In this document: positions 6,323 to 53,747 of the stretch, in pieces
Layout of the letters: the number at the start of each line of letters is the position of its first letter
Position numbering within the stretch: the first letter of the stretch is position 1
NCBI GenBank assembly: GCA_021791445.1
Contig: JAJYWO010000010.1
Coordinates: forward strand, 1,304 to 65,303
Length of the DNA stretch: 64,000 nucleotides
Source: a bacterium
GTDB lineage: Bacteria; Patescibacteriota; Minisyncoccia; UBA6257; UBA9933
Direction: 5' to 3'
Translations under genes and position numbers: made by a program
The notes under the pieces: model-generated
What the model saw: only the letters and a program-made list of their open reading frames with translations
What the model was told of the DNA's origin: nothing
Databases searched by the model: none

Positions 6323-7642
6323 ATGAATAGAATCTATTTTGATTATGCGGCAACAACGCCTATGGACCCGCTAGTGAAAAAAGCGATGGCGCCTTATTTC
6401 TCCGATCGATTTGGAAATCCCGGCTCGCTTCACTCTTTCGGCCAAGAAGCCATGGCGATGGTTGACGAATCGCGCGAAAAAATCGCCAAAGCTGTTAATG
6501 CGGATTTTCGGGAAATAATTTTTACGGGATCGGCCACTGAAGCGAACAACTTGGCGCTGCGCGGCATTGTAAGGGCGGCTCGGCTATTTTCTGACGGAAC
6601 CGGGCGTTCGCTCGCTCCAGCGGCGAGCGCCGCCCTTGACCTCTCGGCGGCGCGCCTGCCTTCGGTAGACCAAGCGCGCGCCGCCTCCGAGACATTCCGC
6701 ACGAAAACAGCCGAGCCACCCTACAGAATTATAATTAGTAAAATAGAACACGATTCAATTTTGGAAACCGCGCGCGACCTTGAACGCGACGGCATTGAAG
6801 TAATCTATCTACCCGTCAATAAAAATGGGCTTATTGATTTAGAAAAACTGAAAAAATCGCTCAATGAGCGGACGATTTTGGTTTCCATAATGCACGCAAA
6901 TAATGAAATAGGGACTATCCAACCAATCGCGGAAATTGCGAAAATTATAAAACAATTCAAAAACAACAAAGAAAAATTTTTTTCGACCTATCCACTTTTT
7001 CACACTGACGCTGTCCAAGCTTTTCAATTCCTGAATTGCGACGTCAATAAACTCGGCGTTGATTTAATGACTTTATCCGCGCATAAAATTTACGGCCCAA
7101 AAGGAATCGGATGTTTATATGTAAAATCCCAAAATTCTAAATTCAATCCGCCAGCTGGCGGACTAAATCCAATTATCACCGGCGGCGGGCAAGAATTCGG
7201 CTTGCGCTCCGGCACGGAAAATGTTCCGGCAATCGCCGGATTCGCCAAAGCCATTGAACTCGTCTCTAATTCGCGCGAATTAGAGAATAAACGCGTTAAA
7301 CAACTTGCCGATTATTTTTGGGAAGAAATTAAAAAAATAGAGCCGAAAGCGGAAATAAATGGAATGTTAAATGCCAATAAATTGCCGAATATTTTAAACA
7401 TTTGTTTCCCCGGTCAGAATGCGCAAGATTTGCTGATAAAACTTGATTTGAACGGCGTGGCGGTTTCCAGCGGCTCGGCTTGTTCGGCGCGCGCCACCAA
7501 ACCGTCGCATGTTCTCAAAGCCATCGGCTTAAGCGACAAAAAAATTAAAAGCAGTTTGCGTTTTAGTTTGGGAAAATTCATGACCAAAAACGAATTAAAC
7601 CGCGCGCTCAAAATAATAAACAGGATATTAAAAAAAGTATAA
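6323..7642 (+). CDS. iscS: Cysteine desulfurase (NifS/IscS family, PLP-dependent) carrying a 47-codon GC-rich in-frame insertion
   Basis: PLP-lysine motif [12 protein letters not shown] and active-site Cys loop SSGSACSA. N-terminal region shows the aminotransferase class V pattern. Confidence 0.88.
6577..6717. repeat. 141-bp GC-rich palindromic element inserted in-frame within iscS. Its 15-bp terminal inverted repeats are ggctcggctattttc / gaaaacagccgagcc
   Basis: Sharp local GC jump. Length is divisible by 3. It encodes a low-complexity Ala/Ser/Arg stretch ([48 protein letters not shown]) where IscS homologues have a short loop. Shares the cgttcgctcgc motif with the element at 40504-40643. 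Confidence 0.65.
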
Positions 7643-41587: not shown

Positions 41588-41612
41588 ATGAAGGCCTCCG
41601 CAAGGCCTTCAT
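41588..41612. terminator. Bidirectional terminator hairpin GAAGGCCTCCGCAAGGCCTTC between the convergent xerC and copA genes. Identical to 11688-11710
   Basis: Perfect hairpin flanked by A/T runs. Confidence 0.7.
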
Positions 41613-43789
41613 TTGTAATATTTCATTGTTAGCGCGCTTAAGACCACACTCACCGAGGAAAACGCCATTGCCGCGGCGGCGATAGCCGGATTAAGCAGCC
41701 AGCCGAAAAACGGGTAAAGGATGCCGGCGGCAATCGGGATGCCGGCGATGTTGTAAAAGAAAGCCCAGAAAAGATTTTGTTTGATTTTTCGCAATGTGTA
41801 AGCGCTTAAATTAATGGCGGAGATGGCGTCGCGTAAATCGTTTTTAACCAGAATAATCTGGCCGCTTTCAATGGCGATGTCCGAACCCGAACCGACTGCA
41901 ATTCCCAAATTGGCTTGCGTTAAGGCCGGCGCGTCGTTGATGCCGTCGCCGACAAAAGCCACGATTTCTCCCTGCGCTTGCAGGTTTTTTATTTCCTGCG
42001 ATTTTTCCTGAGGCAGGACTTCAGCCAATATTTTTTCTATGCCAAGCTGTTTGGCAATGGCTTCAGCGGTTCTTTTATTGTCGCCGGTAATCATCGCCGT
42101 TTTTTTGCCGGCCTCGCGCAGTTTTTTAACGGCTTCAATGGAAGTTTCTTTAAGCGTGTCCGCCGCGGCGATTAAGCCGATTATTTCTTTGTCTGCGGCG
42201 AGAATCATCACGGTTTTCCCTTGTTGTTCCAAATTTGAGATATTTTTTTCAATTTCATCGCTTATATTTATATTGAAACCGGCCATTAAATTTTTATTGC
42301 CGATTAAAATTTTTTGATTTTTAATTTCCCCTTTTGCTCCTTTTCCCGGAATCGCCTCAAAATTTTCAACTTCAAACAATCCCAGATTGTTTTTTTTCGC
42401 CTCGTCAACAATCGCTTGCGCCAAGGGATGTTCGGATTTTTTCTCCAAACTCGCCGCCAGTTTTAAAACATCGTTTTTTGCAATTTCCATAATATCCGTT
42501 ACTGTCGGTTCGCCGCGGGTCAAAGTTCCGGTTTTGTCAAAAACAACCATAGTGATTTTTTTGGCGATTTCCAAAGCGTCGGCGCTTTTGATTAAAATTC
42601 CTTTTTGCGCCGCTAAGCCCGTTCCCATCATTATCGCCGTGGGAGTCGCCAAGCCCAAGGCGCAGGGGCAGGCGATAATCAAAACCGTGACAAAAATCAC
42701 TAAGCTGAATGTGGCGCTTTGTCCAGTTAAAAACCAGATAATGGCGGCCAACACAGCGATAGCAATAACACTGGGCGTGAAATACAGCGAGATTTTATCA
42801 ACCAAAAGCTGAATCGGCGCTTTTGATTCCATAGCTTCCTGAACCACTTTGATGATTTGCGCCAAAATCGTATCTTTGCCAATTCTTTTCGCTTCAATTT
42901 TCAGAAAGCCGGTTTTATTGATGGTCGCGCCGATAACATCGTCTCCAACTTTTTTTTCAACCGGAATGCTTTCGCCGGTAATCATTTTTTCGTCAACTCC
43001 CGAATATCCTTCAATGACTTTGCCGTCAACCGGAATTTTTTCTCCGGGCTTTACCAAAACAATATCGCCGATTTTTATTTCCGCGATGTTGATTTTTATT
43101 TCTTTGCCGTCTCTTATGATAACCGCTTCCTTCGGTTGGAGGCCGATGAGTTTTTTAATCGCCTCGTTAGTTTTGCCTTTGGTTTTGGCTTCAAGATATT
43201 TGCCGAGGGCGATGAAAATCAGAATCAAAGCCGCGCTTTCAAAATACAAATCTCCGGAAACCGATAATACTAAAATAATCAGGCTGTAAAAATAAGCCAC
43301 GGCAGTGCCGATGAAAATCAAAGAATCCATATTGGGCATAAACCGGAGCAAGCTTTTAAATCCCGATTTCCAAATGTCAAAACAAGCGGCGATAATCGCG
43401 GTTGCCAAAACAAGCTGAATAATATCACTTGCTTGTTTTGCCAAGGGCAATTTTGGCAATCCGACAAGCGACGCCATTACAGCGTAAATAATCGGCAAGC
43501 CGAAAATAAGCGAAAAAACAAAGCGGTTTCTCAATTTTTTCGCCGGTTCTTCGGGATGATGGTGCTCGTGGTCTATTTCGTTTTCTTCCATCGCTCCGTA
43601 GCCGAGTTCGCCGATGATTTTTTTAATCGTGTCTTTGCCGATTTTTTTCTCGTCAAATTCAATACTGGCTTTTTCCGAAGCAAAATTCACGCCGGCATTT
43701 TTTATACCCTCGGTTTTTTTCAAAACGTGTTCAATGTTGGCGGCGCACGACGCGCAATCCATATCGGTAATTTTGAGAATTGTTTTCAT
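41609..43789 (-). CDS. copA: Copper-translocating P1B-type ATPase
   Basis: N-terminal HMA motif [14 protein letters not shown] in TM6 ([12 protein letters not shown]), [15 protein letters not shown]. Confidence 0.93.
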
Positions 43790-43795
43790 ATTATT

Positions 43796-44827
43796 TTATA
43801 TTCCGCAGCCGCTTTGTTGCTGAGGAGCCGGAGCGCTGTCAATGCCGCAGCCGCTTCCGCCGGAAGATTTTTGGGTTTTCGCGGTTTGCGAAGAGATTTT
43901 TCTGTATCCGGACGCGCTGGAATAATCAGCTCCGAGAATTTCAATTGGATCAACATTTTCCCATTCAATTCCTTTATTTTTCATATAAGTCGCGATGGTG
44001 AGATAAGTGTCCGGAAACCAGTAGGAATTTACGGCCAAAGCCGCATTCCACATTTCTTGTTCGCTCGCGTTTTGCGAAGCCATCAGCTCCAGAAGTCCAA
44101 GCATCGCCATCCCGTGGTTGCAATCCGGAAAATGCGTTGAATTGCCGCAGCACGGCCGGTAAACGCCTTTGGAAACTTTTTCCACCAGTGCCTGTTGTTC
44201 GTCGGTCAATTCAAGAAGCCGGTGCTTGCTGTAATGTTCCATTGCGTTTCCCTTGGCGATTGTCCATCCAGCGGTTGAGGCGAAATTTTCGGCTCCGCCG
44301 TAGCGCGGGTCCGCCATTTCTCCGTTTTCCAGAATCGGATTTTTGTTTGCCAAGCCGAGCGCCCACAGCAGATTCAGCAGATATCCGGAATTTTCATTTG
44401 TTATTCTGAGTTTGCCGTTGTTTTTCCCGAGGAGCAGATTCTCGTATTCTTTGGCGAACGCGTCGCGCTGTTCGTATATTGATTTGAATTTGTCGGCGTC
44501 AATGGCGCCTGAATTCACGAGTTGAAGTCCGAGATCGCCCCAGACAGCGGGCAAAACAACGCCTTCGGACGGCAGAACTTTTTCTTCAAGTTCGGAAATT
44601 GTTGTTTCGGAGACGGAGGCATTTTGCGTTTTCGGCAGGGTGCCGGATTTCAGTCCTACGGAATACACCCATGTTCCGGAAATCAATATCGCTGAAATAA
44701 GAATGCTTGTGCCGATGCCGATATTGAAGCCCGAGGATTTTTCCGCGCCGGCGTTTTGAATTGTTTCTTCCGCGTTTTGCGCTTGCACATCTTCAATTAT
44801 TTGATTTTGATTTTTTTGTTCTTCCAT
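43796..44827 (-). CDS. Membrane-anchored Cys-containing protein (CCGNSTHFPDCNHG, C-terminal SGCGIDSAPAPQQQSGCGI). Possibly a metal/thiol-redox partner in the copA operon
   Basis: ORF, single N-terminal TM. Position in the operon 46124->41609. Confidence 0.45.
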   Translation of the reverse strand: MEEQKNQNQIIEDVQAQNAEETIQNAGAEKSSGFNIGIGTSILISAILISGTWVYSVGLKSGTLPKTQNASVSETTISELEEKVLPSEGVVLPAVWGDLGLQLVNSGAIDADKFKSIYEQRDAFAKEYENLLLGKNNGKLRITNENSGYLLNLLWALGLANKNPILENGEMADPRYGGAENFASTAGWTIAKGNAMEHYSKHRLLELTDEQQALVEKVSKGVYRPCCGNSTHFPDCNHGMAMLGLLELMASQNASEQEMWNAALAVNSYWFPDTYLTIATYMKNKGIEWENVDPIEILGADYSSASGYRKISSQTAKTQKSSGGSGCGIDSAPAPQQQSGCGI

Positions 44828-44835
44828 AAGTTTAT

Positions 44836-45618
44836 TTAGAAAGCGAAAATGGCGATGCCGAGAATAATCATGGCAATGCCACTGATCGTTTTCATTTGTT
44901 TATTATTGACTCTTTTCCATTCCATCACTTTTTCCGTAAGAGATTTATCGCTGGTTATCAGCAGAATCGCGACAAGCGGAAGAATGAAAATCAGATTGTA
45001 CAGCAGAAGATAGCCGATTCCGGAATAATAAGTGTTCTGGTCATGAAGCAGTCCTAGCACCATCAGATACGGGCCGCCGGTGCAGGGAAATTCGCAGAGC
45101 CCGACAAGGACGCCCAGAAAAAACGCGGCCAATAAGGACGTTTTATCCATAAGTTCCGCCATTTTATTGTGCGCGATTTTCGGAATTTTTATTCTTATCG
45201 GAAACGATGGAAACAGCGCGCTTATGGCGCTTATCGCTCCGACGGCGATTAGAAGGACTGCTCCGACTTTTGCCATAAAATGCGGTGTGTTGAAAAGATG
45301 GAGAACCTGCAGAATTCCGAGCCCAATAAGGACATAAACGGCGAGAATTCCCAAAATGTAAAACCCTCCGATTTTCAAAATATCCGAACGCGTTTTTTCG
45401 ATGGTGAAAAGAAAAGCGATTGTCAGGAGCAGGATTGAAAACGCGCAGGGATTGACGCTGTCAATTATCGCCGCAACGCTTACGAGCGGCAGAAGCCATT
45501 TGCCGTGATCGCTTATATTCCACAAGGCGGCTGTTCCAATATTGCTTTCTTTCAGAAATATTGCCGCGCCGAAAACTAACAATGCGATTGCGGAAATAAA
45601 TATCAGTTTTTTGCTCAT
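44836..45618 (-). CDS. ccdA: Cytochrome c biogenesis / thiol-disulfide transporter CcdA (DsbD transmembrane domain family)
   Basis: Paired Cys in TM segments (SVNPCAFS and CEFPCTGGPY), 6-8 TM topology. Confidence 0.8.
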   Translation of the reverse strand: MSKKLIFISAIALLVFGAAIFLKESNIGTAALWNISDHGKWLLPLVSVAAIIDSVNPCAFSILLLTIAFLFTIEKTRSDILKIGGFYILGILAVYVLIGLGILQVLHLFNTPHFMAKVGAVLLIAVGAISAISALFPSFPIRIKIPKIAHNKMAELMDKTSLLAAFFLGVLVGLCEFPCTGGPYLMVLGLLHDQNTYYSGIGYLLLYNLIFILPLVAILLITSDKSLTEKVMEWKRVNNKQMKTISGIAMIILGIAIFAF

Positions 45619-46124
45619 TATGGAGTTACAACGGCGGTTAATTGAAGTTCAATCGGGTCGCCCGCGTTGTTTTCAATTATTACCGCCCTTTGGATTTTGC
45701 CAACGCCGGCCGGACCATGCGCCGCCGGGTCAAAAACGGCTTCTATTGTCGCTTCTTCGTTGGAATCGATTATCTGATTTATCACCGGAATAACGCCATG
45801 GCCGGGCATTCCGTAAGGCCCCATTTTTTTGCCCTTAATCATAAGTTCGGCGGTTGTGCACATGCACGAAGTGTATATCTTGCTTATAGTCGTTGCTTCA
45901 TTTCCGTTATTTTTAATTTTAAAATCGTATTTTACTTTTCCGGCGGTCATTGAAATTTCGCCGAAATCATAATTATTAACTCCTTCAACAACCAATGTTC
46001 CGTTATTTTGCGCCGGAATCGCGGATTTGTTTTTTCCGCTGCTCTGCTGTTTTGGTTCCGCGAACCAGATGATTCCGCCGAGCAGCGCGGCCGCGACAAC
46101 GGCGCTGATGACAATTTTGTTCAT
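45618..46124 (-). CDS. Secreted DUF1573-family protein
   Basis: YDFGEI...G......F.IKNNGN..L.I..V..SCMCT pattern. Confidence 0.6.
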   Translation of the reverse strand: MNKIVISAVVAAALLGGIIWFAEPKQQSSGKNKSAIPAQNNGTLVVEGVNNYDFGEISMTAGKVKYDFKIKNNGNEATTISKIYTSCMCTTAELMIKGKKMGPYGMPGHGVIPVINQIIDSNEEATIEAVFDPAAHGPAGVGKIQRAVIIENNAGDPIELQLTAVVTP

Positions 46125-47280: not shown

Positions 47281-47469
47281 AAGAATTAAGAAAAATATGG
47301 AACCTAAAATAAATTTTTGGGAATTTTGCGCGCGTGTATACGAAATTTACAAGTATATAATAATTACCGGGTTTAGTTAGTTTAGTTATGGACTTATTCC
47401 CGCCAGAGGCGGACAGGCGCGCGAATAGTGGAATAATAAGAAATAAAATAAAAAATTTGTAAAATGAAT

Positions 47470-47600
47470 CGCGGGCTTGACTTTTGGGGTGAGATATGCT
47501 TATATAAATATAGTTTAAACACGGGATTGAACTTTGAAAAACATTCGTCATAGACGGATAAAATGATAGATAGAAAATTTTAGATAAGGAGGATAAGGAG
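47470..47600 (+). promoter_or_regulatory. Conserved promoter + 5' leader element, copy 1 of 3: cgcgggcTTGACTtttggggtgagatatgcTTATATAaat, a leader hairpin (cgtc-ata-gacg), ggataaaatgatagatagaaaa, then the SD ggaggataaggag
   Basis: Near-identical ~45-nt promoter core in all three copies. The leader hairpin shows compensatory changes between copies (cgtc/gacg vs ccgcc/ggcgg vs cagcgg/ccgctg). Confidence 0.75.
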
Positions 47601-48641
47601 ATGAATGAAATTTCCACGATAAAATTAATGTGGTTAACTGTTAATCGCGAATGTAATTTCCGTTGTAATTGGTGTTATGCGGCAGGAAGCGAATATCAGG
47701 CAAAAGATGAAATGTCTTTGCCGTTCGCTCTTGATCTTCTTGAAATTGCAAAACAACTTGGGATTGGCAAGTTATTTCTAATCGGGGGAGAGCCAACCCT
47801 TTGGCCTTATTTGTTTGATTTTAATGACGCGATGATATCCGCTAAAATAAAATCTACGCTTGTAACTAATGCGTATAGATTTTCTAGCGATAGGTTTTGG
47901 AGGAAATACATTGAGCATCCAAATACCCATATAGGCGCTTCATTTAAAGCTTTTAATCCGAAAAGTTTGATTGAGAATACAAAGGCCACTGCATTCGCCG
48001 ATGTTACAAAAGGTCTTCAAAGAGTTTTTGAATATCAACCAAATAGTATAGCCAGTTTTGTGTATTCACGGCCATATGTGTCTCATTTCCTGGATATGAT
48101 GAAATATGCCGTTGACTGCGGAGCATTTGGTGTGTCTGTGAATTTTTGTTCTCCGGCTATACACAAAGACCGCATAGATGATAAATTCTTAATTGATATT
48201 GACGTATTAGTTAAGGAAATAATATCTACTTATGAAGAAGCGCATGCGATTACGGGCGGTCGTCTTGTGTTTGTTATGAAACACCCTCTTTGTATTTGGC
48301 CTAAAGATTTTATTCAAATTTTGAAAGACAGGGGGCAGATTTCAACCACATGTCACCTCCAACATCAATCAGGGGGCATTATTGATACAGACGGTTCATT
48401 GTTAATTTGCAACAGCATGTTTGGCTTCCCCGTTGGCAGATACGGACAGGATTTTAAATCTGCCGAGTCGCTGGCAACTTTTTTTGGATCAAAGCAAATG
48501 AGAAATTACTTTGCTCAAGTAAGGGCGTATCCTTCCAAGAAGTGCATTGATTGTGAAGTCTTTGAAGACTGTTCAGGGGGTTGTCCATTGTTGTGGACAG
48601 TGTATTCGCCTGACAGCGTAATTACAGGGTGGTCAAAGTAG
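47601..48641 (+). CDS. Radical SAM enzyme with a C-terminal SPASM domain (peptide-modifying maturase type)
   Basis: CNFRCNWC (Cx3Cx2C) near the N-terminus and C-terminal CIDCEVFEDCSGGC (Cx2Cx5Cx3C), plus upstream CHLQH...ICNS auxiliary Cys. Confidence 0.85.
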   Translation: MNEISTIKLMWLTVNRECNFRCNWCYAAGSEYQAKDEMSLPFALDLLEIAKQLGIGKLFLIGGEPTLWPYLFDFNDAMISAKIKSTLVTNAYRFSSDRFWRKYIEHPNTHIGASFKAFNPKSLIENTKATAFADVTKGLQRVFEYQPNSIASFVYSRPYVSHFLDMMKYAVDCGAFGVSVNFCSPAIHKDRIDDKFLIDIDVLVKEIISTYEEAHAITGGRLVFVMKHPLCIWPKDFIQILKDRGQISTTCHLQHQSGGIIDTDGSLLICNSMFGFPVGRYGQDFKSAESLATFFGSKQMRNYFAQVRAYPSKKCIDCEVFEDCSGGCPLLWTVYSPDSVITGWSK

Positions 48642-48642
48642 A

Positions 48643-49365
48643 TTGACCATAACGAATCCTCTGGCGCATCGTAACGCGTCAGAGGATTTTTTTGCTAAAT
48701 CGAAAATTATAAGTTATATTAATAAAATCATGCTTGTTATACCCATAAAATTTCAATTTAATATTGAATCCGAGGTGCGCAGAGTAAGGGAGACTCTTGA
48801 TAATTTTAAATGGCTTACCAAAAATAATTACAGGTTTCTTTTGCCGAACGGCATAAAGGATTCTAAAGACATAAAAATAGAAATGATTAGAAAGTTAGTG
48901 GAAGATGAGTATGACTTGAATATTTATCAGATTGCCGAGAGCGCCATTTTAAAATCATGGGAAGGGAACAGTGGTTTAATGAGAAAAATTAACCAAAAGA
49001 TGAATGGTTCGTATATGTTGGATGAGGTCACTGTAATTTTAACCAGATATGGCACTCAGGGAAGCTATATGACACCTAATTCAGCGATTATAAATATTTC
49101 TAATATTCCTTCCGAGTTTCTAATTAAAACTGTTATACACGAGTCCTTGCATTTAATGATTGAACATTTAATCAAAAAATATTCAGTTGAGCATTGGGTT
49201 AAGGAACGTATAGTAGATTTAATAATGGATTTTGAATATAAATCTCGTTTTAAAATGCAGTCTGCGCCTAATTGGGTTTTTATTACAGATGAGATATTTA
49301 AAGGGTATTATCCGGATATGAATTTAATAATAGAAGGGGCAGCTAAAATTTTTCCTGATAAGTAA
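48643..49365 (+). CDS. HExxH-motif protein (putative zinc metallopeptidase), paralog 1 of 3
   Basis: TVIHESLHLMIEH. Translationally coupled to the rSAM gene, with a 1-nt gap. Confidence 0.6.
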   Translation: MTITNPLAHRNASEDFFAKSKIISYINKIMLVIPIKFQFNIESEVRRVRETLDNFKWLTKNNYRFLLPNGIKDSKDIKIEMIRKLVEDEYDLNIYQIAESAILKSWEGNSGLMRKINQKMNGSYMLDEVTVILTRYGTQGSYMTPNSAIINISNIPSEFLIKTVIHESLHLMIEHLIKKYSVEHWVKERIVDLIMDFEYKSRFKMQSAPNWVFITDEIFKGYYPDMNLIIEGAAKIFPDK

Positions 49366-49383
49366 TTTGCTGTGTATAAAAAA

Positions 49384-49420
49384 AGCCCTCAGCACATTTA
49401 ATTAAAAAATGTGCCGAGGG
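49384..49420. terminator. Bidirectional terminator gccctcagcacattt-aattaaa-aaatgtgccgaggg
   Basis: 14-15-bp stem with a T-run on the minus strand and A/T on the plus strand. Sits between convergent genes. Confidence 0.75.
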
Positions 49421-49445
49421 TTGTCGTTTCGGATGGAGATATTCT

Positions 49446-49607
49446 CTCACTCGTCTGCACAGTCGCAATTGCATTCGCATGCTCCCCAGCCGCCATCACA
49501 ATTACTGGTTATACAGTCACAATCACCGCGGATTTGAGGGGAAAAGCCTTTGACGCTTCTCGTGCATGGTATTTCCGTTGTCTTAAGGAATCTAACGAAT
49601 TTATCCA
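49446..49607 (-). CDS. Unannotated 53-aa Cys/Asp-rich precursor-like peptide (SCIFF/ranthipeptide-like): VDKFVRFLKTTEIPCTRSVKGFSPQIRGDCDCITSNCDGGWGACECNCDCADE
   Basis: Minus strand: SD AAAGGAGGTGA, 7 nt, GTG start, 8 Cys concentrated in the C-terminal 24 residues, stop followed by a strong terminator. A TTGTAT-17-TAATAT promoter lies upstream. The plus-strand ORF 49411..49692 on the opposite strand is judged spurious. Confidence 0.7.
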
Positions 49608-49681
49608 CTATTTCTCACCTCCTTTCTATTTGAATTTTCTAATAAAAATATTAACATTATTTTTTGATTTATACAATAACC

Positions 49682-49906
49682 CTATTTTTTAAGATCTTCA
49701 AATAATTTAGTATTTTTTGGATTATTCAGATAATGTTTAAAATGTTTTATTTCGTCGACTAAAATCTTTTCAAATTTACTTATCCAGATTTTATTAAAAC
49801 GCGGTTGAAATATTTCAAAAATTTTTTTAAATTCGTCTTTTTTGACAAGTCCTTCCAATTCGTTCCAAGCTTCTTTTTCCGGATATGTAAAAAATATCTG
49901 TCCCAA
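49682..49906 (-). CDS. Small hypothetical Lys/Glu-rich protein (74 aa), upstream of the precursor peptide. It overlaps the 5' end of 49842..50618 on the other strand, so one of the two starts is wrong
   Basis: ORF with plausible composition. No motif recognised. Confidence 0.35.
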   Translation of the reverse strand: MGQIFFTYPEKEAWNELEGLVKKDEFKKIFEIFQPRFNKIWISKFEKILVDEIKHFKHYLNNPKNTKLFEDLKK

Positions 49907-50618
49907 ATATTTTGACTATTGTGATGATGGCAGGAATTTGGAATGGGCGATTTTGAGAAAATATCCGGAATTTAAAAAATATAAAAGAAATAAATTAGAT
50001 GTCAATGAAAAGCAAATTTCAATATTTGTAAATTCTATTTATCAAAAGAACAATAAAATAATCAGAAAAAATCTTGATTTATATAAAAAAAGTTGGGCGA
50101 AACTGGGGAAAGACTATTTTGTTTTAGTTAGCCAGATTTTCGGCGATTATAAATGGCCATTAGGAAAATATATTGTTTATCTGACAATTTGGGGGATGCA
50201 CCCGCGTTTTTTAGAAGATAAAACTTTTCAAATCCCTTTTCGCCATAAGAATGAAAAATATATAAATGTGATTATTGCCCACGAAATGCTTCATTTTATA
50301 TTTTATGATTATTTTTATAATAAATTTCCCCAATATAAATCAAACAAATACAATTTTTTCGTATGGAACATATCGGAAATTTTTAACAATATAGCGCAGG
50401 ATTCTCCGCAATGGATTAAAATTTTTAAAGCTAAATCTATGCCTTATCCGGAACATAAAAAAATAGTGAATAAATTAAAGAAAAAATTTTATAAAAAAAG
50501 CGTTATTATAGCTAAAGATTTAATAAAAGAAATTATAAAAAATAAAGATTTTTTACCAATTTTCGCGGGCTTGACTTTTGGGGTGAGATATGCTTATATA
50601 AATATAATTAAGGGATAG
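49842..50618 (+). CDS. HExxH-motif protein, paralog 2 of 3. The TTG start from the track is uncertain. Its C-terminus is translated through the conserved promoter element of the next operon
   Basis: NVIIAHEMLHFIFYDY. The C-terminus FAGLTFGVRYAYINI is encoded by the cgcgggcttgacttttgggg... promoter repeat. Confidence 0.55.
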   Translation: MTSPSNSFQASFSGYVKNICPKYFDYCDDGRNLEWAILRKYPEFKKYKRNKLDVNEKQISIFVNSIYQKNNKIIRKNLDLYKKSWAKLGKDYFVLVSQIFGDYKWPLGKYIVYLTIWGMHPRFLEDKTFQIPFRHKNEKYINVIIAHEMLHFIFYDYFYNKFPQYKSNKYNFFVWNISEIFNNIAQDSPQWIKIFKAKSMPYPEHKKIVNKLKKKFYKKSVIIAKDLIKEIIKNKDFLPIFAGLTFGVRYAYINIIKG

Positions 50619-50691
50619 TTCTTAAAAACAAACAGCGGTTTTCAGCCGCTGAAAAATAAGATAGAAAAATTTAGAAATGAGGAGGTAAATC
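50561..50691 (+). promoter_or_regulatory. Conserved promoter + leader element, copy 2 (TTGACT at 50571-50576). Leader hairpin cagcgg-ttttcag-ccgctg, then aaaataagatagaaaa, then SD gaggaggtaa
   Basis: See copy 1. Confidence 0.75.
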
Positions 50692-51999
50692 ATGTTATAT
50701 CAGACACTTTCGGCACCAATAAATTGCCAGATAGAGCTTACGACTTCTTGTAGTCATAATTGTTCTCATTGCTATAATTTCTGGCGGAAGGATATTGAAA
50801 GAGTCAATAATTTTCTTAAAGAAACAGATGTTAGTAAAATTATACGGAAAATAGCGGACGCAAAAGTATTTGATATCATAATTACCGGCGGTGAGCCGTT
50901 AATAAAATATGATATTCTCATACATTGTATTAAGGAGGCGCGAAGCGCAGGATTGGGCATTTCTTTGAATTCAAATTTAGTTTCGTTAACCAGGGCTCGC
51001 GCGCGCGAATTGCGTTCTTTGGGTATAAAACAAATACTCACGTCTTTAATGGGTCCATCAGCGGAAATACATGATAAAATTGCCCAATCAAAAGGGTCAT
51101 TTGAAAGAGTTGTGAGAAATATACAATTAGCCAATGAAGAAAAGATTAATATTGTCGCCAATATGGTAGTTTCAAAAATTAATCTTTCTTTTGTTAGGGA
51201 CACGGCAAAGTTTGTTTCTTCTATTGGAATTAAGAAGTTTGCGGCTACCAAAGCGGGATGTCCGGGAAATTGTTTCGATTTCTCGCAATTCTCATTATCA
51301 AAAGAAGAATTTAAGAAATATTTACAAGATTTACAAGAAGTTGGCGAAGAGCTCGGTATTGCAATTGATGCGCTTGAGGGATATCCATTGTGTGGAATCG
51401 GCGACCTTAATCGTTATTATTCATTTATTGGAAGGAAATGTTATGCTGGCGTAACTACGATAACTATTGCCAGCGATGGCGAAGTTAGACCATGTTCCCA
51501 TCTTGATGTTTCGTATGGAAATTTACTTACAAAAGATTTGGCGGAGATTTGGACACGCATGGCTCCATGGAGAAATGGCGCATACTTACCAAATACTTGT
51601 AAAAGTTGTAAAATTTTACATGTGTGCGGTGGCGGTTGTCGTATGGAGGCGAAGATGCGCAGCGGGAATATTTCAGGAATGGATCCGTACAGTATGCCCA
51701 ACGATATTGAAAAGAGTTTATATTCACTTCAAGAACATCAGAAAAATATGTTTTATAAGGCGCCATTGAAAAATTTTGAAATAAGGCCTTATCGCTATCG
51801 ACATGAATCTTTTGGAGCCGTTGTTCTTGTGGGGAAATCTCGAGCATTTCTAAGTGCAACCGGTCTTAAACTCTTTAAGCAGTTTGAAATATCGTCTACG
51901 TATTCATTACAAGACGAAAGAATTCAGTGGGGCGCTTTGAATCCGGTCGATTTTATTCGCGGCCTTATTCAAAGAGGAATCGCTGTTGGAAAACAGTGA
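50692..51999 (+). CDS. Radical SAM enzyme with a SPASM domain, second maturase
   Basis: CSHNCSHC (Cx3Cx2C) and C-terminal CKSCKILHVCGGGC (Cx2Cx5Cx3C), plus CGIGD...C auxiliary cluster residues. Confidence 0.85.
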   Translation: MLYQTLSAPINCQIELTTSCSHNCSHCYNFWRKDIERVNNFLKETDVSKIIRKIADAKVFDIIITGGEPLIKYDILIHCIKEARSAGLGISLNSNLVSLTRARARELRSLGIKQILTSLMGPSAEIHDKIAQSKGSFERVVRNIQLANEEKINIVANMVVSKINLSFVRDTAKFVSSIGIKKFAATKAGCPGNCFDFSQFSLSKEEFKKYLQDLQEVGEELGIAIDALEGYPLCGIGDLNRYYSFIGRKCYAGVTTITIASDGEVRPCSHLDVSYGNLLTKDLAEIWTRMAPWRNGAYLPNTCKSCKILHVCGGGCRMEAKMRSGNISGMDPYSMPNDIEKSLYSLQEHQKNMFYKAPLKNFEIRPYRYRHESFGAVVLVGKSRAFLSATGLKLFKQFEISSTYSLQDERIQWGALNPVDFIRGLIQRGIAVGKQ

Positions 52000-52033
52000 T
52001 TATGTAAAAATATCTCAAAAGGAGGTAATCGCT

Positions 52034-52162
52034 ATGCCAAAAGATGACGGTTTTGTTTCATTCGTTCAAATAGAAAAAAACCAAACAGAAAATCTTACGG
52101 CTGTTCAAAACTGCGACTGTTATGATTGCGACTACAACTGCGAAGAGTGCGATAGCAAATGA
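52034..52162 (+). CDS. Unannotated 42-aa Cys/Asp-rich precursor-like peptide: MPKDDGFVSFVQIEKNQTENLTAVQNCDCYDCDYNCEECDSK
   Basis: SD AAAGGAGGTAA 7 nt before the ATG, directly downstream of the rSAM stop. Five Cys in the last 16 residues, with a CDC motif shared with peptide A. A terminator follows. Confidence 0.75.
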   Translation: MPKDDGFVSFVQIEKNQTENLTAVQNCDCYDCDYNCEECDSK

Positions 52163-52184
52163 TCATAGATCATTTGTTGATCTC

Positions 52185-52214
52185 AAAGAGATAAAGGATT
52201 TCCTTTATCTCTTT
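52185..52214. terminator. Bidirectional terminator aaagagataaagga-ttt-cctttatctcttt plus a T run
   Basis: 13-14-bp stem. Sits between precursor B (+) and the HExxH paralog 3 (-). Confidence 0.75.
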
Positions 52215-53080
52215 TTTATTTGGATCGGTTTTTGATATTTAAGTAGAATATGCGGTTTTTTATATAATTGATTTCCATAGCGGTTCCAAACGGCGCGTTT
52301 TTTTGAAAAATCTTTATTAATTGGCAAAAGAATATTTAATATTTCTTGCAGGAAAGTTTTAAAAGTTTTTTTATTTTTTATTTTTATAATTTGATAATAT
52401 TCATTAATAAATTCAGTAAAAGAAATAATTACGCCATCGGACTTTTTAATTTGCAGGTCGCGAATTTCCGGATTGCCTTGATAATTTTTTAATTTAAGAA
52501 TTTTATTAAGAGGTTTTTGGTTAAGCAATACGGCGGTCAAAGTTTCTTTAAAATAGTTTTTAAAATCTTCTGGGACTTTTTTTCGTTTCAATTTTTTAAG
52601 AAAATTAAAAAGAATGAAATGCGATATTTCATGGATAGCAATAAAAAGAATATCTCTGCCACCTTTTCTTTTTATCTGTTCAAGAATTGAAAAATAAAAA
52701 ACATTGTTGCCAAAAGGAGAAAATGGAAGAATTGTCGGCATGGCTGTGTAGTCGGGGTGATTTTTTGGCCATTGATAATCCATTAATTTCGCCAATTTGA
52801 TGAGCGCTTTTTTTTCTTTTTCTTTTAATATTTTTTTCGATTGAACAATAATTTTTTTGATTTTTTTATCGTTTTTTTTATAAAAATCTTTAATGAATTC
52901 TTTTATAATAGTTTTTTCTTTATTTTTATTTTTCTCTGTTTTTAACAAAATTTCCAATTCGGGAAAGGATTTAAAAATAATAAATTTATGTTGAGGATAA
53001 TAATGATGGTGTAAAAATTTTAAAAATAGATCAACTTCTTTATTTAAGTCATATGTAATTTTAATAGAAGGAATTTTCAT
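52205..53080 (-). CDS. HExxH-motif protein, paralog 3 of 3
   Basis: LFIAIHEISHFILFNF, Lys-rich, 291 aa. SD aaaggaaa lies upstream of the ATG at 53080. Confidence 0.55.
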   Translation of the reverse strand: MKIPSIKITYDLNKEVDLFLKFLHHHYYPQHKFIIFKSFPELEILLKTEKNKNKEKTIIKEFIKDFYKKNDKKIKKIIVQSKKILKEKEKKALIKLAKLMDYQWPKNHPDYTAMPTILPFSPFGNNVFYFSILEQIKRKGGRDILFIAIHEISHFILFNFLKKLKRKKVPEDFKNYFKETLTAVLLNQKPLNKILKLKNYQGNPEIRDLQIKKSDGVIISFTEFINEYYQIIKIKNKKTFKTFLQEILNILLPINKDFSKKRAVWNRYGNQLYKKPHILLKYQKPIQIKKR

Positions 53081-53120
53081 GTTAAAATTTTATCAAATTT
53101 CCTTTATTTTATCCAATTTT

Positions 53121-53255
53121 CGCGGACTTGACTTTTGGGGCGAGATATGCTTATATAAATACAATTTAAGCAAGGGGTTGGACTTTGAAAAACATCCGCC
53201 ATGGGCGGATAAAATGATAGATAGAAAAAATTCAGAAAAATAGGAGGATAAGGAG
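53121..53255 (+). promoter_or_regulatory. Conserved promoter + leader element, copy 3 (TTGACT at 53128-53133). Leader hairpin ccgcc-atg-ggcgg, ggataaaatgatagatagaaaa, SD ggaggataaggag
   Basis: See copy 1. Confidence 0.75.
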
Positions 53256-53747
53256 ATGACGAAGAATATTATAGGATTTCTGTTAGTTTTCTGCATTTTC
53301 GCCATTGGCGCAAATTTAATGGCGGAAGAGGATTATGGTAATGTTGGCCCGACGTTAAAGGATTTCATTATTGCTAAAGAAGGAGATAATTTGAGGCTCA
53401 GCTTCTCTTTCTTTAACGTCAAAGGCGGGTTGGCTGCAGCCACTTTCACAGTTGGTTATGTTATTGAAAGGGGTGAGTCGACCATAGAGTCAAATGTGAT
53501 GACCAATCTCGGAATTGCTCCGGATTTGGCGAAGGTGTCTAAATTAAAGTCAAAAATAGACATTTTCCAAATTGAAACCGGTGAATTTCAAGTTGTCATT
53601 CCGTGGCTCCGGGCCCAGAGTATCAAAGATTTGGAGTTAAAATCAGGCGATAAGATTAAATATCTTATCTACTTGACGGATAAGAACGGCAGAAAATCAA
53701 ACACCGTCTTCTGTGAATATTTATTCATAGAAGAATGGAACATTTAA
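53256..53747 (+). CDS. Secreted hypothetical protein (signal peptide)
   Basis: MTKNIIGFLLVFCIFAIGANLMA signal. Confidence 0.5.
   Translation: MTKNIIGFLLVFCIFAIGANLMAEEDYGNVGPTLKDFIIAKEGDNLRLSFSFFNVKGGLAAATFTVGYVIERGESTIESNVMTNLGIAPDLAKVSKLKSKIDIFQIETGEFQVVIPWLRAQSIKDLELKSGDKIKYLIYLTDKNGRKSNTVFCEYLFIEEWNI

Follow-up and report, generated by a model that had tools for sequence, protein, structure and literature searches.

Three anciently diverged HExxH proteins as genomic partners of Cys-rich peptides and radical SAM/SPASM enzymes in a Patescibacteria genome

The DNA analyzed here (hereafter, the window) is a stretch of 64,000 nucleotides from contig JAJYWO010000010.1 (positions 1,304 to 65,303, assembly GCA_021791445.1) of a member of the Patescibacteriota. 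It contains a compact locus with two radical S-adenosylmethionine (rSAM) enzymes bearing a SPASM domain (rSAM-A and rSAM-B), two short Cys-rich peptides (A and B) and three proteins, here termed HExxH1, HExxH2 and HExxH3, that carry a HExxH motif (Table 1). We report that these three proteins belong to distinct ortholog groups, and that each group has, as its conserved partners in the genome, a single family of precursor peptides rich in Cys and Asp/Asn/Glu and a single family of radical SAM/SPASM enzymes. The motif reads TVIHESLHLMIEH in HExxH1 (HESLH at 49138-49152), VIIAHEMLHFIFYDY in HExxH2 (HEMLH at 50280-50294) and IAIHEISHFILFNF in HExxH3 (HEISH at 52633-52619). Among the 59 non-overlapping open reading frames (ORFs) of at least 100 aa in the window (19,297 aa), HE..H occurs four times, three of them in these proteins and the fourth in the His-rich linker of a CopA-like ATPase. 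A prediction made earlier from the letters of this DNA had described three Lys-rich HExxH proteins at this location. Their coordinates, motifs and Lys content (9.0% in HExxH1, 15.1% in HExxH2 and 19.6% in HExxH3) agree with that description, with the corrections that the first protein is almost certainly 211 aa long, starting at the ATG at 48730, and that the third (52205..53080) is encoded on the minus strand. None of the three has a signal-peptide-like N-terminus and hence they are presumably cytoplasmic.

Table 1. Genes and nucleotide features of the HExxH/rSAM locus, in window coordinates.
Feature	Coordinates	Strand	Remarks
Promoter-like/5'-leader repeat, copy 1	47469..47577	+	109 nt; upstream of rSAM-A
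rSAM-A	47601..48641	+	346 aa; radical SAM/SPASM
Terminator-like hairpin and T-run	48654..48689	+	between rSAM-A and HExxH1
HExxH1	48730..49365	+	211 aa from ATG 48730; frame open from TTG 48643
Hairpin	49386..49420		between the convergent HExxH1 and peptide A genes; called as a minus-strand terminator in the scan
Precursor peptide A	49447..49608	-	53 aa; GTG start; GGAGG ribosome-binding site; core DCDCITSNCDGGWGACECNCDCADE
74-aa antisense ORF	49682..49906	-	overlaps the 5' end of HExxH2
HExxH2	49842..50618	+	258 aa; TTG start
Promoter-like/5'-leader repeat, copy 2	50563..50671	+	upstream of rSAM-B; overlaps the last 56 nt of HExxH2
rSAM-B	50692..51999	+	435 aa; radical SAM/SPASM
Precursor peptide B	52034..52162	+	42 aa; ATG after AAGGAGG; core NCDCYDCDYNCEECDSK
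Hairpin	52185..52214		between the convergent peptide B and HExxH3 genes; called as a plus-strand terminator in the scan
HExxH3	52205..53080	-	291 aa; ATG start; convergent with peptide B
Promoter-like/5'-leader repeat, copy 3	53120..53228	+	upstream of the 163-aa protein
163-aa protein	53256-53747		signal-peptide-like N-terminus

The original prediction regarded the three proteins as a private family, specific to this locus, with the HExxH motif as their only shared feature. Neither view can be maintained. Homolog searches returned 61 relatives of HExxH1 (~211 aa), at least 313 of HExxH2 (~240 aa) and 87 of HExxH3 (~291 aa), spread over many Patescibacteria lineages, and the three lists share no members. 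An exhaustive HMMER search with the HExxH1 profile recovered 706 cluster representatives at E <=1e-3 (116 at E <=1e-30), and the HExxH2 profile detected at least 103 loci among GTDB species representatives, nearly all of them in Patescibacteria metagenome-assembled genomes (MAGs). Pairwise BLASTP among the three window proteins gave nothing significant, their homology being visible to profiles only: hhalign aligns HExxH2 with HExxH3 over 201 columns (98.6%, E 7e-16). A first comparison of the close homologs of HExxH1 with HExxH2 and HExxH3 was not significant; after diverse members had been added, the HExxH1 superfamily aligned with the combined HExxH2 and HExxH3 profile over 152 columns (93.8%, E 1.7e-7), from the N-terminal strand as far as the HExxH helix. 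As judged from sequence comparison, these profile-profile matches and the separate ortholog groups place the three proteins in one superfamily as anciently diverged, true paralogs. The earlier view of three diverged paralogs within 5 kb thus stands as far as paralogy is concerned, and fails if it is taken to mean local duplication.

Related loci encode further HExxH proteins beside additional rSAM genes, one of 309 aa (locus L002, 8874-9803, minus strand; HEVIH...SEIA) and one of 221 aa (L011, 4413-5078, plus strand; HELLH...KESL), and the superfamily hence has more branches than the three represented in the window. Two longer proteins that contain the HExxH1 domain (P0371 and P0426) show no recognizable extra domain. 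With regard to the source organism, all eight products of the locus are present in a public protein collection, and identical sequences are found in a MAG filed at NCBI as 'Actinobacteria bacterium'. The named homologs of these genes nevertheless all belong to the Patescibacteria (Wolfebacteria, Niyogibacteria, Paceibacterota, Azambacteria and others), and that MAG is probably misclassified, or the contig mis-binned.

The HExxH motif is invariant in every homolog aligned, which rules out a chance occurrence, and the loss of the motif in orthologs that would have spoken against the original prediction is not seen. In an alignment of 142 HExxH2 and HExxH3 sequences the only invariant columns are T115, H147, E148, H151 and E179, and in an alignment of 118 members of the HExxH1 superfamily (~30% identity) they are H137, E138, H141 and E159. 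In the latter, K158, V162 and D163 are nearly invariant and define an ExxxD motif, with E159 lying within KExxxD. An invariant Glu hence follows the second His of the motif at +18 in HExxH1 (E159), +28 in HExxH2 (E179) and +25 in HExxH3 (E179). Apart from the motif, no other residue is invariant in both alignments. This Glu is the putative third metal ligand, and the site as a whole looks gluzincin-like, with the two His of HExxH and a Glu on the next helix. The original prediction had read the motif as a gluzincin-type zinc site and had proposed to look for such a ligand 20-60 residues downstream, and on both counts the alignments are in its favor.

The AlphaFold2 models of HExxH2 (predicted local distance difference test, pLDDT, 88.1; predicted template modeling score, pTM, 0.86) and HExxH1 (pLDDT 93.9, pTM 0.90) follow one and the same order along the chain: a strand and helices at the N-terminus, a long helical hairpin, two to three beta-strands, the HExxH helix (residues 140-161 in HExxH2 and 128-151 in HExxH1) and, as the next predicted helix, the one that bears the Glu. 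Foldseek searches of the PDB with these models list almost exclusively zinc peptidases, including M1 aminopeptidases, selecase, adamalysins and the lanthipeptide leader peptidase EryP, none of them at a significant score. Similarly, the recurrent Pfam matches among the homologs are all weak and all to zincin families, namely DUF5700 (7 of 25, best 1.3e-5), DUF3267 (8 of 25), SprT-like (8 of 24) and Peptidase_MA_2 (3 of 24). Assignment to any one of these or to related families does not follow from the scores. DUF5700 (PF18958) has no match to the window proteins, its seven matches being weak ones among 25 HExxH2 homologs, although two homologs have a precomputed PF18958 match, and a literature search on this family found nothing. 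For the SprT-like family (PF10263/NF003421), HExxH1 scores 12.5 bits against a cutoff of 25.6, and the best E-values of homologs are 0.0061 and 0.0027. The M1 leader peptidases of the AplP/EryP type carry a GxMEN exopeptidase motif; the proteins considered here are 211-291 aa long, and GxMEN was not seen on reading their sequences, no pattern search having been made.

Synteny around the three proteins is strong, and the link to an rSAM/peptide system put forward in the original prediction is conserved in other genomes. For HExxH1 the context was read in five loci on four contigs, representing three distinct arrangements. A convergent homolog of peptide A lies just downstream in all five (E 1e-20 to 1e-30), and a 345-aa A-type rSAM enzyme just upstream in three. 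HExxH3 was analyzed in metagenome loci with at least 400 nt (n = 62) or at least 1.8 kb (n = 46) of 3' sequence: a convergent Cys/acid-rich small ORF is present in 37 of the 62, a convergent B-type rSAM enzyme in 28 of the 46, and both together in 26 of the 46. For HExxH2, as surveyed in 80 species-representative genomes, an rSAM gene is found within 6 kb in 37 loci. The commonest neighbor within 3.5 kb is an rSAM enzyme of ~460 aa (33 of 80), usually immediately upstream, and the next most common family is found in 12. In this enzyme the radical SAM domain is preceded by ~100 residues, and the closest NCBIfam model is that of the maturase of the 'FibroRumin system' (283 bits, where the cutoff is 400); a literature search on FibroRumin found nothing.

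Peptide A is highly conserved, being 57-78% identical across the loci examined, with the core DCDCIxxNCDGGWGACECNCDC (homologs at 7714-7908 in L005, 7686-7856 in L009 and 7731-7913 in L010), and the DNA upstream of it is not conserved between loci. Its grouping at '90% identity' with unrelated proteins of 480-584 aa (e.g. P0026) looks like a clustering artifact, the 565-aa representative bearing no apparent relation to it on reading. In L009 a B-type rSAM gene lies upstream of peptide A on the same strand, while an A-type rSAM gene and HExxH1 converge on it, an arrangement from which one peptide A may be served by both rSAM types. The well-defined peptide B family, represented by 33 distinct small ORFs in loci L093-L170, combines a GFETIL or GFESIF leader with the core CxDCYDCxxNCEECD. 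The window peptide (DGFVSFVQ ... NCDCYDCDYNCEECDSK) fits this family, and in related loci peptide B likewise lies between a B-type rSAM gene and a convergent HExxH3 homolog. No NCBIfam or Pfam model matches the family. As for the maturases, rSAM-A matches PF04055 (1.8e-15) and the SPASM model TIGR04085, its nearest NCBIfam model being PapB, far below the cutoff. In rSAM-A the CxxxCxxC motif begins near residue 19 and leaves no N-terminal extension of the size of a precursor recognition element (RRE), and rSAM-B is likewise devoid of such a region. In rSAM-B and its homologs, a conserved extension of ~100 residues that matches no family follows the SPASM domain (residues ~335-435).

Comparison with related loci also bears on the gene calls. 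The majority of the 61 HExxH1 homologs are 205-225 aa long and the alignment begins at Met 48730. The 88 nt that separate rSAM-A from this codon hold a 14-bp hairpin followed by a T-run (48654-48689), and a hairpin and T-run of unrelated sequence occupy the same position in L008/L111 (~6924-6962 in L008) and in L010 (~6983-7014). HExxH1 therefore almost certainly starts at the ATG at 48730, and the TTG start at 48643, together with the translational coupling to rSAM-A that the original prediction derived from it, is artefactual; the conservation of the hairpin suggests instead a terminator or attenuator that uncouples the two genes. In HExxH2, the TTG at 49842 is the sole in-frame start upstream of the conserved DDGRNLEW segment and leaves exactly 27 residues before it, as in the orthologs, including the invariant P4 and F8; an alternative call of 221 aa would lose invariant residues. 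This N-terminal stretch is strongly diverged, and the majority of tblastn matches begin at residue 28. At the other end, translation of the C-terminal tail runs on into repeat copy 2; the core retains every invariant residue. The ~460-aa rSAM enzyme that usually accompanies HExxH2 orthologs is missing beside the gene in the window, and HExxH2 looks rearranged at both ends in the source genome.

The overlap of HExxH2 with an ORF on the opposite strand, already pointed out in the original prediction, is real, and that 74-aa antisense ORF probably does not represent a gene. A tblastn search of 11 related loci revealed no homolog, there is no Pfam or NCBIfam match, and its cluster in the protein collection has two members, its own 74-aa and 58-aa versions. 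It was also considered as a remnant of a fourth HExxH paralog, from the family of the 309-aa L002 protein, an idea rejected on a BLASTP E-value of 1.5 and the lack of any tblastn match in related loci. A near-consensus promoter-like site on the minus strand (TTGACA, a 16-nt spacer and TATATT; 50005-49978) lies inside the HExxH2 coding region, upstream of both this ORF and peptide A.

The promoter-like repeat is present in three direct copies that are 63-89% identical over 109 nt. Its 35-nt core occurs three times in the window against none expected, with zero to one mismatch between copies. Each copy consists of TTGACT, a 17-nt spacer, TATATAAAT, a leader hairpin, AAGATAGAAAA and a GGAGG ribosome-binding site, and the stem of the hairpin differs in sequence between copies while its pairing is kept. 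The location of the copies before rSAM-A, rSAM-B and the 163-aa protein suggests that these genes form one regulon. The repeat is absent from the rest of the window and from all the related loci that were fetched, and a search of Rfam over 46.5-54.5 kb gave only a sub-threshold NsiR1 match on the terminator hairpin. Directly upstream of the locus, on the minus strand (41609-46124), lies a metal/redox gene set that encodes a CopA-like P-type ATPase that bears an HMA domain, a Cys-containing protein (343 aa) of no known family, a DUF1573 protein and, as identified by reading the sequence only, a CcdA/DsbD-like membrane protein. A metal-binding role for Cys/acid-rich peptides encoded beside such genes is conceivable. 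A functional link with the copper ATPase, CcdA and DUF1573 genes was considered and set aside, since the gene tables that were read for related loci list no such neighbors.

Taken together, the conserved pairing with precursor peptides, the invariant Glu that could act as general base and the fact that no gene between 47.4 and 53.3 kb matched another peptidase family favor metal-dependent leader cleavage or trimming. Accompaniment by a precursor peptide and its maturase is what one expects of a leader peptidase for peptides that are made by the ribosome and modified after translation (RiPPs), and it is found for HExxH1, for HExxH3 and, as regards the rSAM enzyme, for HExxH2. Moreover, peptidases of the zincin superfamily have been proposed to cleave leaders in the candidate phyla radiation (CPR), to which Patescibacteria belong, in RiPP loci that also contain SPASM enzymes (Makarova et al. 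2022, PMC8939145). We give about an even chance to the proposal that HExxH1, HExxH2 and HExxH3 are leader or trimming peptidases of rSAM-modified peptides. Under this scheme, the rSAM enzymes would introduce cross-links into the Cys-rich core at the C-terminus of peptides A and B, the cognate HExxH protein would bind the precursor, and a metal-activated water molecule, with the Glu of HExxH as general base, would cut the leader or trim the peptide, a cut that would release the mature product.

A number of observations weigh against a peptidase assignment. In L005/L006, the HExxH1 homolog is accompanied by peptide A without an adjacent rSAM gene, and 43 of the 80 HExxH2 loci have no rSAM gene within 6 kb. 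No exporter is visible in the locus cluster, and no GG or other conserved cleavage motif can be seen where leader and core meet in the peptide B family. The best Foldseek match to the PDB has an E-value of 0.14, so that the support for the fold consists of the motif, the order of secondary structure elements and a list of matches that is thematically consistent and non-significant; profile searches against PDB sequences found no relative, and no curated Pfam or NCBIfam model is reached by the window proteins. In addition, a HExxH motif with one carboxylate also suits a non-heme Fe enzyme, and certain HExxH proteins that lie beside rSAM enzymes in RiPP clusters have recently been shown to be alpha-ketoglutarate (aKG)-dependent hydroxylases (PMC12636437, PMC13060819).

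This last parallel leads to the main alternative, in which the three proteins tailor the peptides without hydrolysis, in the manner of the aKG/Fe(II) HExxH beta-hydroxylases (ChlH, BpmH, PesO, PflC/PosC). In rSAM-cross-linked acid-rich cores they would hydroxylate side chains of Asp, Asn or Glu, or cleave the backbone by oxidation. The aKG-HExxH enzymes have a zincin-like fold, are typically fused or adjacent to rSAM/SPASM maturases, and the residues on which they act in RiPP precursors are Asp, His, Gln, Phe and Pro (PMC12636437, PMC13060819). The peptide cores at this locus are packed with Asp, Asn and Glu, a site of two His and one carboxylate would suit Fe(II), and the family model TIGR04267 is the most frequent, if very weak, NCBIfam match in the HExxH1 superfamily (3 of 118, best E 0.005). 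On the other hand, the same model has no match to the window proteins at E <=1 (its cutoff is 40 bits, and PflC, used as a control, scores 98.5 bits) and matches none of the 142 HExxH2 and HExxH3 members. In the hhalign comparison with an alignment of PflC, ChlH and 22nu, only the HExxH helix aligns (4% and 0.5%). PflC (sequence from the supplement of PMC12636437) finds ChlH (8s5f) and 22nu in the PDB. The PW...R...G segment that follows HExxH by ~25-35 residues in PflC, ChlH and 22nu is absent here, the invariant Glu standing in its stead, and ChlH (8s5f) is not among the best 50 Foldseek matches of either model. The absence of TIGR04267 matches, the low hhalign values and the lack of PW...R...G establish, at the level of primary structure, that the three proteins are not members of the aKG-HExxH family TIGR04267/IPR026337, whose enzymes are also larger (~370-440 aa against 210-290 aa). 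Patescibacteria are mostly anaerobic fermenters with a poor supply of aKG, and an enzyme dependent on O2 and aKG is on general grounds not to be expected in them. A tailoring activity of this kind is, in our view, unlikely.

The HExxH proteins might also act without catalysis, as scaffolds that bind the leader and offer it to rSAM-A and rSAM-B. Since both enzymes begin directly with CxxxCxxC and lack an N-terminal RRE domain, a separate partner for substrate recognition is plausible, and this would accord with the conserved way in which each HExxH family keeps to a single family of peptides and a single family of rSAM enzymes. A pure scaffold, however, would not be expected to keep the general-base Glu and three putative ligands invariant in ~260 diverse sequences; the N-terminal region of the HExxH proteins is not predicted to be a winged-helix RRE, and the ~100 N-terminal residues of the usual rSAM partner of HExxH2 leave room for a recognition domain of its own. 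We consider such a role very improbable. Somewhat less so, yet still improbable, is that these are general or housekeeping metalloproteases, either SprT-like or engaged in self-protection or turnover, and that they lie next to the peptide genes for reasons unrelated to maturation. The 43 HExxH2 loci devoid of a nearby rSAM gene, the absence of the usual rSAM partner from the HExxH2 of the window, weak SprT-family matches in 15 of 142 members (best E 0.0027) and the JGI annotation of two HExxH2 homologs as predicted SprT-family metalloproteases all point that way. The SprT matches are nevertheless far below threshold and confined to the motif helix, rSAM enzymes are by far the commonest neighbors of HExxH2, and the convergent arrangements of HExxH1 with peptide A and of HExxH3 with peptide B and rSAM-B across distant genomes are hard to explain without a functional link.

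Whichever chemistry applies, the superfamily is large, a single branch numbering from hundreds to more than 700 clusters (at 50% identity), and it is absent from Pfam and NCBIfam. Although Patescibacteria genomes are tiny, many lineages keep from one to several modules of peptide, SPASM rSAM enzyme and HExxH protein, from which it seems reasonable to postulate that their presumably episymbiotic way of life depends to some degree on the products. The outcome would be of interest either way, as a new family of RiPP leader peptidases or as a wider range of non-hydrolytic HExxH chemistry, and the well-defined substrate families, such as peptide B with its GFETIL leader and CxDCYDCxxNCEECD core, render the hypothesis directly testable by co-expression. 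A bolder and rather doubtful proposal is that the superfamily represents a second, independent HExxH lineage recruited to rSAM RiPP pathways, either for non-hydrolytic chemistry on acid-rich peptides with thioether cross-links (e.g. Fe-dependent hydroxylation or oxidative backbone cleavage), or as a catalytic partner indispensable to rSAM enzymes without an RRE. In both cases, Patescibacteria would carry a large undescribed RiPP class in which a small HExxH enzyme joins a SPASM rSAM enzyme and a peptide rich in Cys and Asp.

The closest known systems each share some features with the one described here. The M1 leader peptidases AplP and EryP of class III lanthipeptides (PDB 7v9n) likewise combine HExxH with a downstream Glu and are dedicated to the removal of RiPP leaders. 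They are among the best Foldseek matches of the HExxH2 model, without reaching significance (E >=1.5), but they are multi-domain proteins of ~850 aa and are not linked to rSAM enzymes. The minigluzincin selecase of Methanocaldococcus jannaschii (PDB 4qhi), among the top Foldseek matches of the same model (E ~1), is also a small soluble protein in which a beta-sheet is combined with a HExxH helix and a glutamate helix. It differs in its length of ~110 aa, in the lack of an N-terminal helical region and in having no RiPP context. DUF5700 (PF18958), DUF3267 (PF11667) and the SprT-like family (PF10263), which we take to belong to clan MA, are also HExxH putative zincins, and any matches to the window proteins stay below the gathering score.

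Organism group, kind of locus and proposed role are shared with the CPR graspetide loci of Makarova et al. 2022 (PMC8939145), in which RiPP genes, often with a SPASM rSAM enzyme, accompany a zincin-superfamily peptidase proposed to cleave the leader; the HExxH1 locus L008 has MvdD-type ATP-grasp genes nearby. That work centers on ATP-grasp enzymes and does not describe the three ortholog groups or the Cys-rich peptides. The terms 'zincin', 'metallopeptidase' and 'HExxH' gave no match in its supplements, and its clusters may or may not be the same families. The aKG-HExxH enzymes (TIGR04267/IPR026337; ChlH 8s5f, BpmH, PesO, PflC/PosC), finally, are HExxH proteins similarly placed beside, or fused with, rSAM/SPASM maturases. 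ChlH, BpmH and PesO are aKG/Fe(II)-dependent beta-hydroxylases of zincin-like fold, and PflC and PosC also cleave the backbone oxidatively, PflC being able to hydrolyze peptides as well (PMC12636437, PMC13060819); the window proteins are shorter by ~100-200 residues. The three window proteins, members of a large uncurated superfamily of Patescibacteria, would likewise be metalloenzyme partners in an rSAM RiPP cluster.

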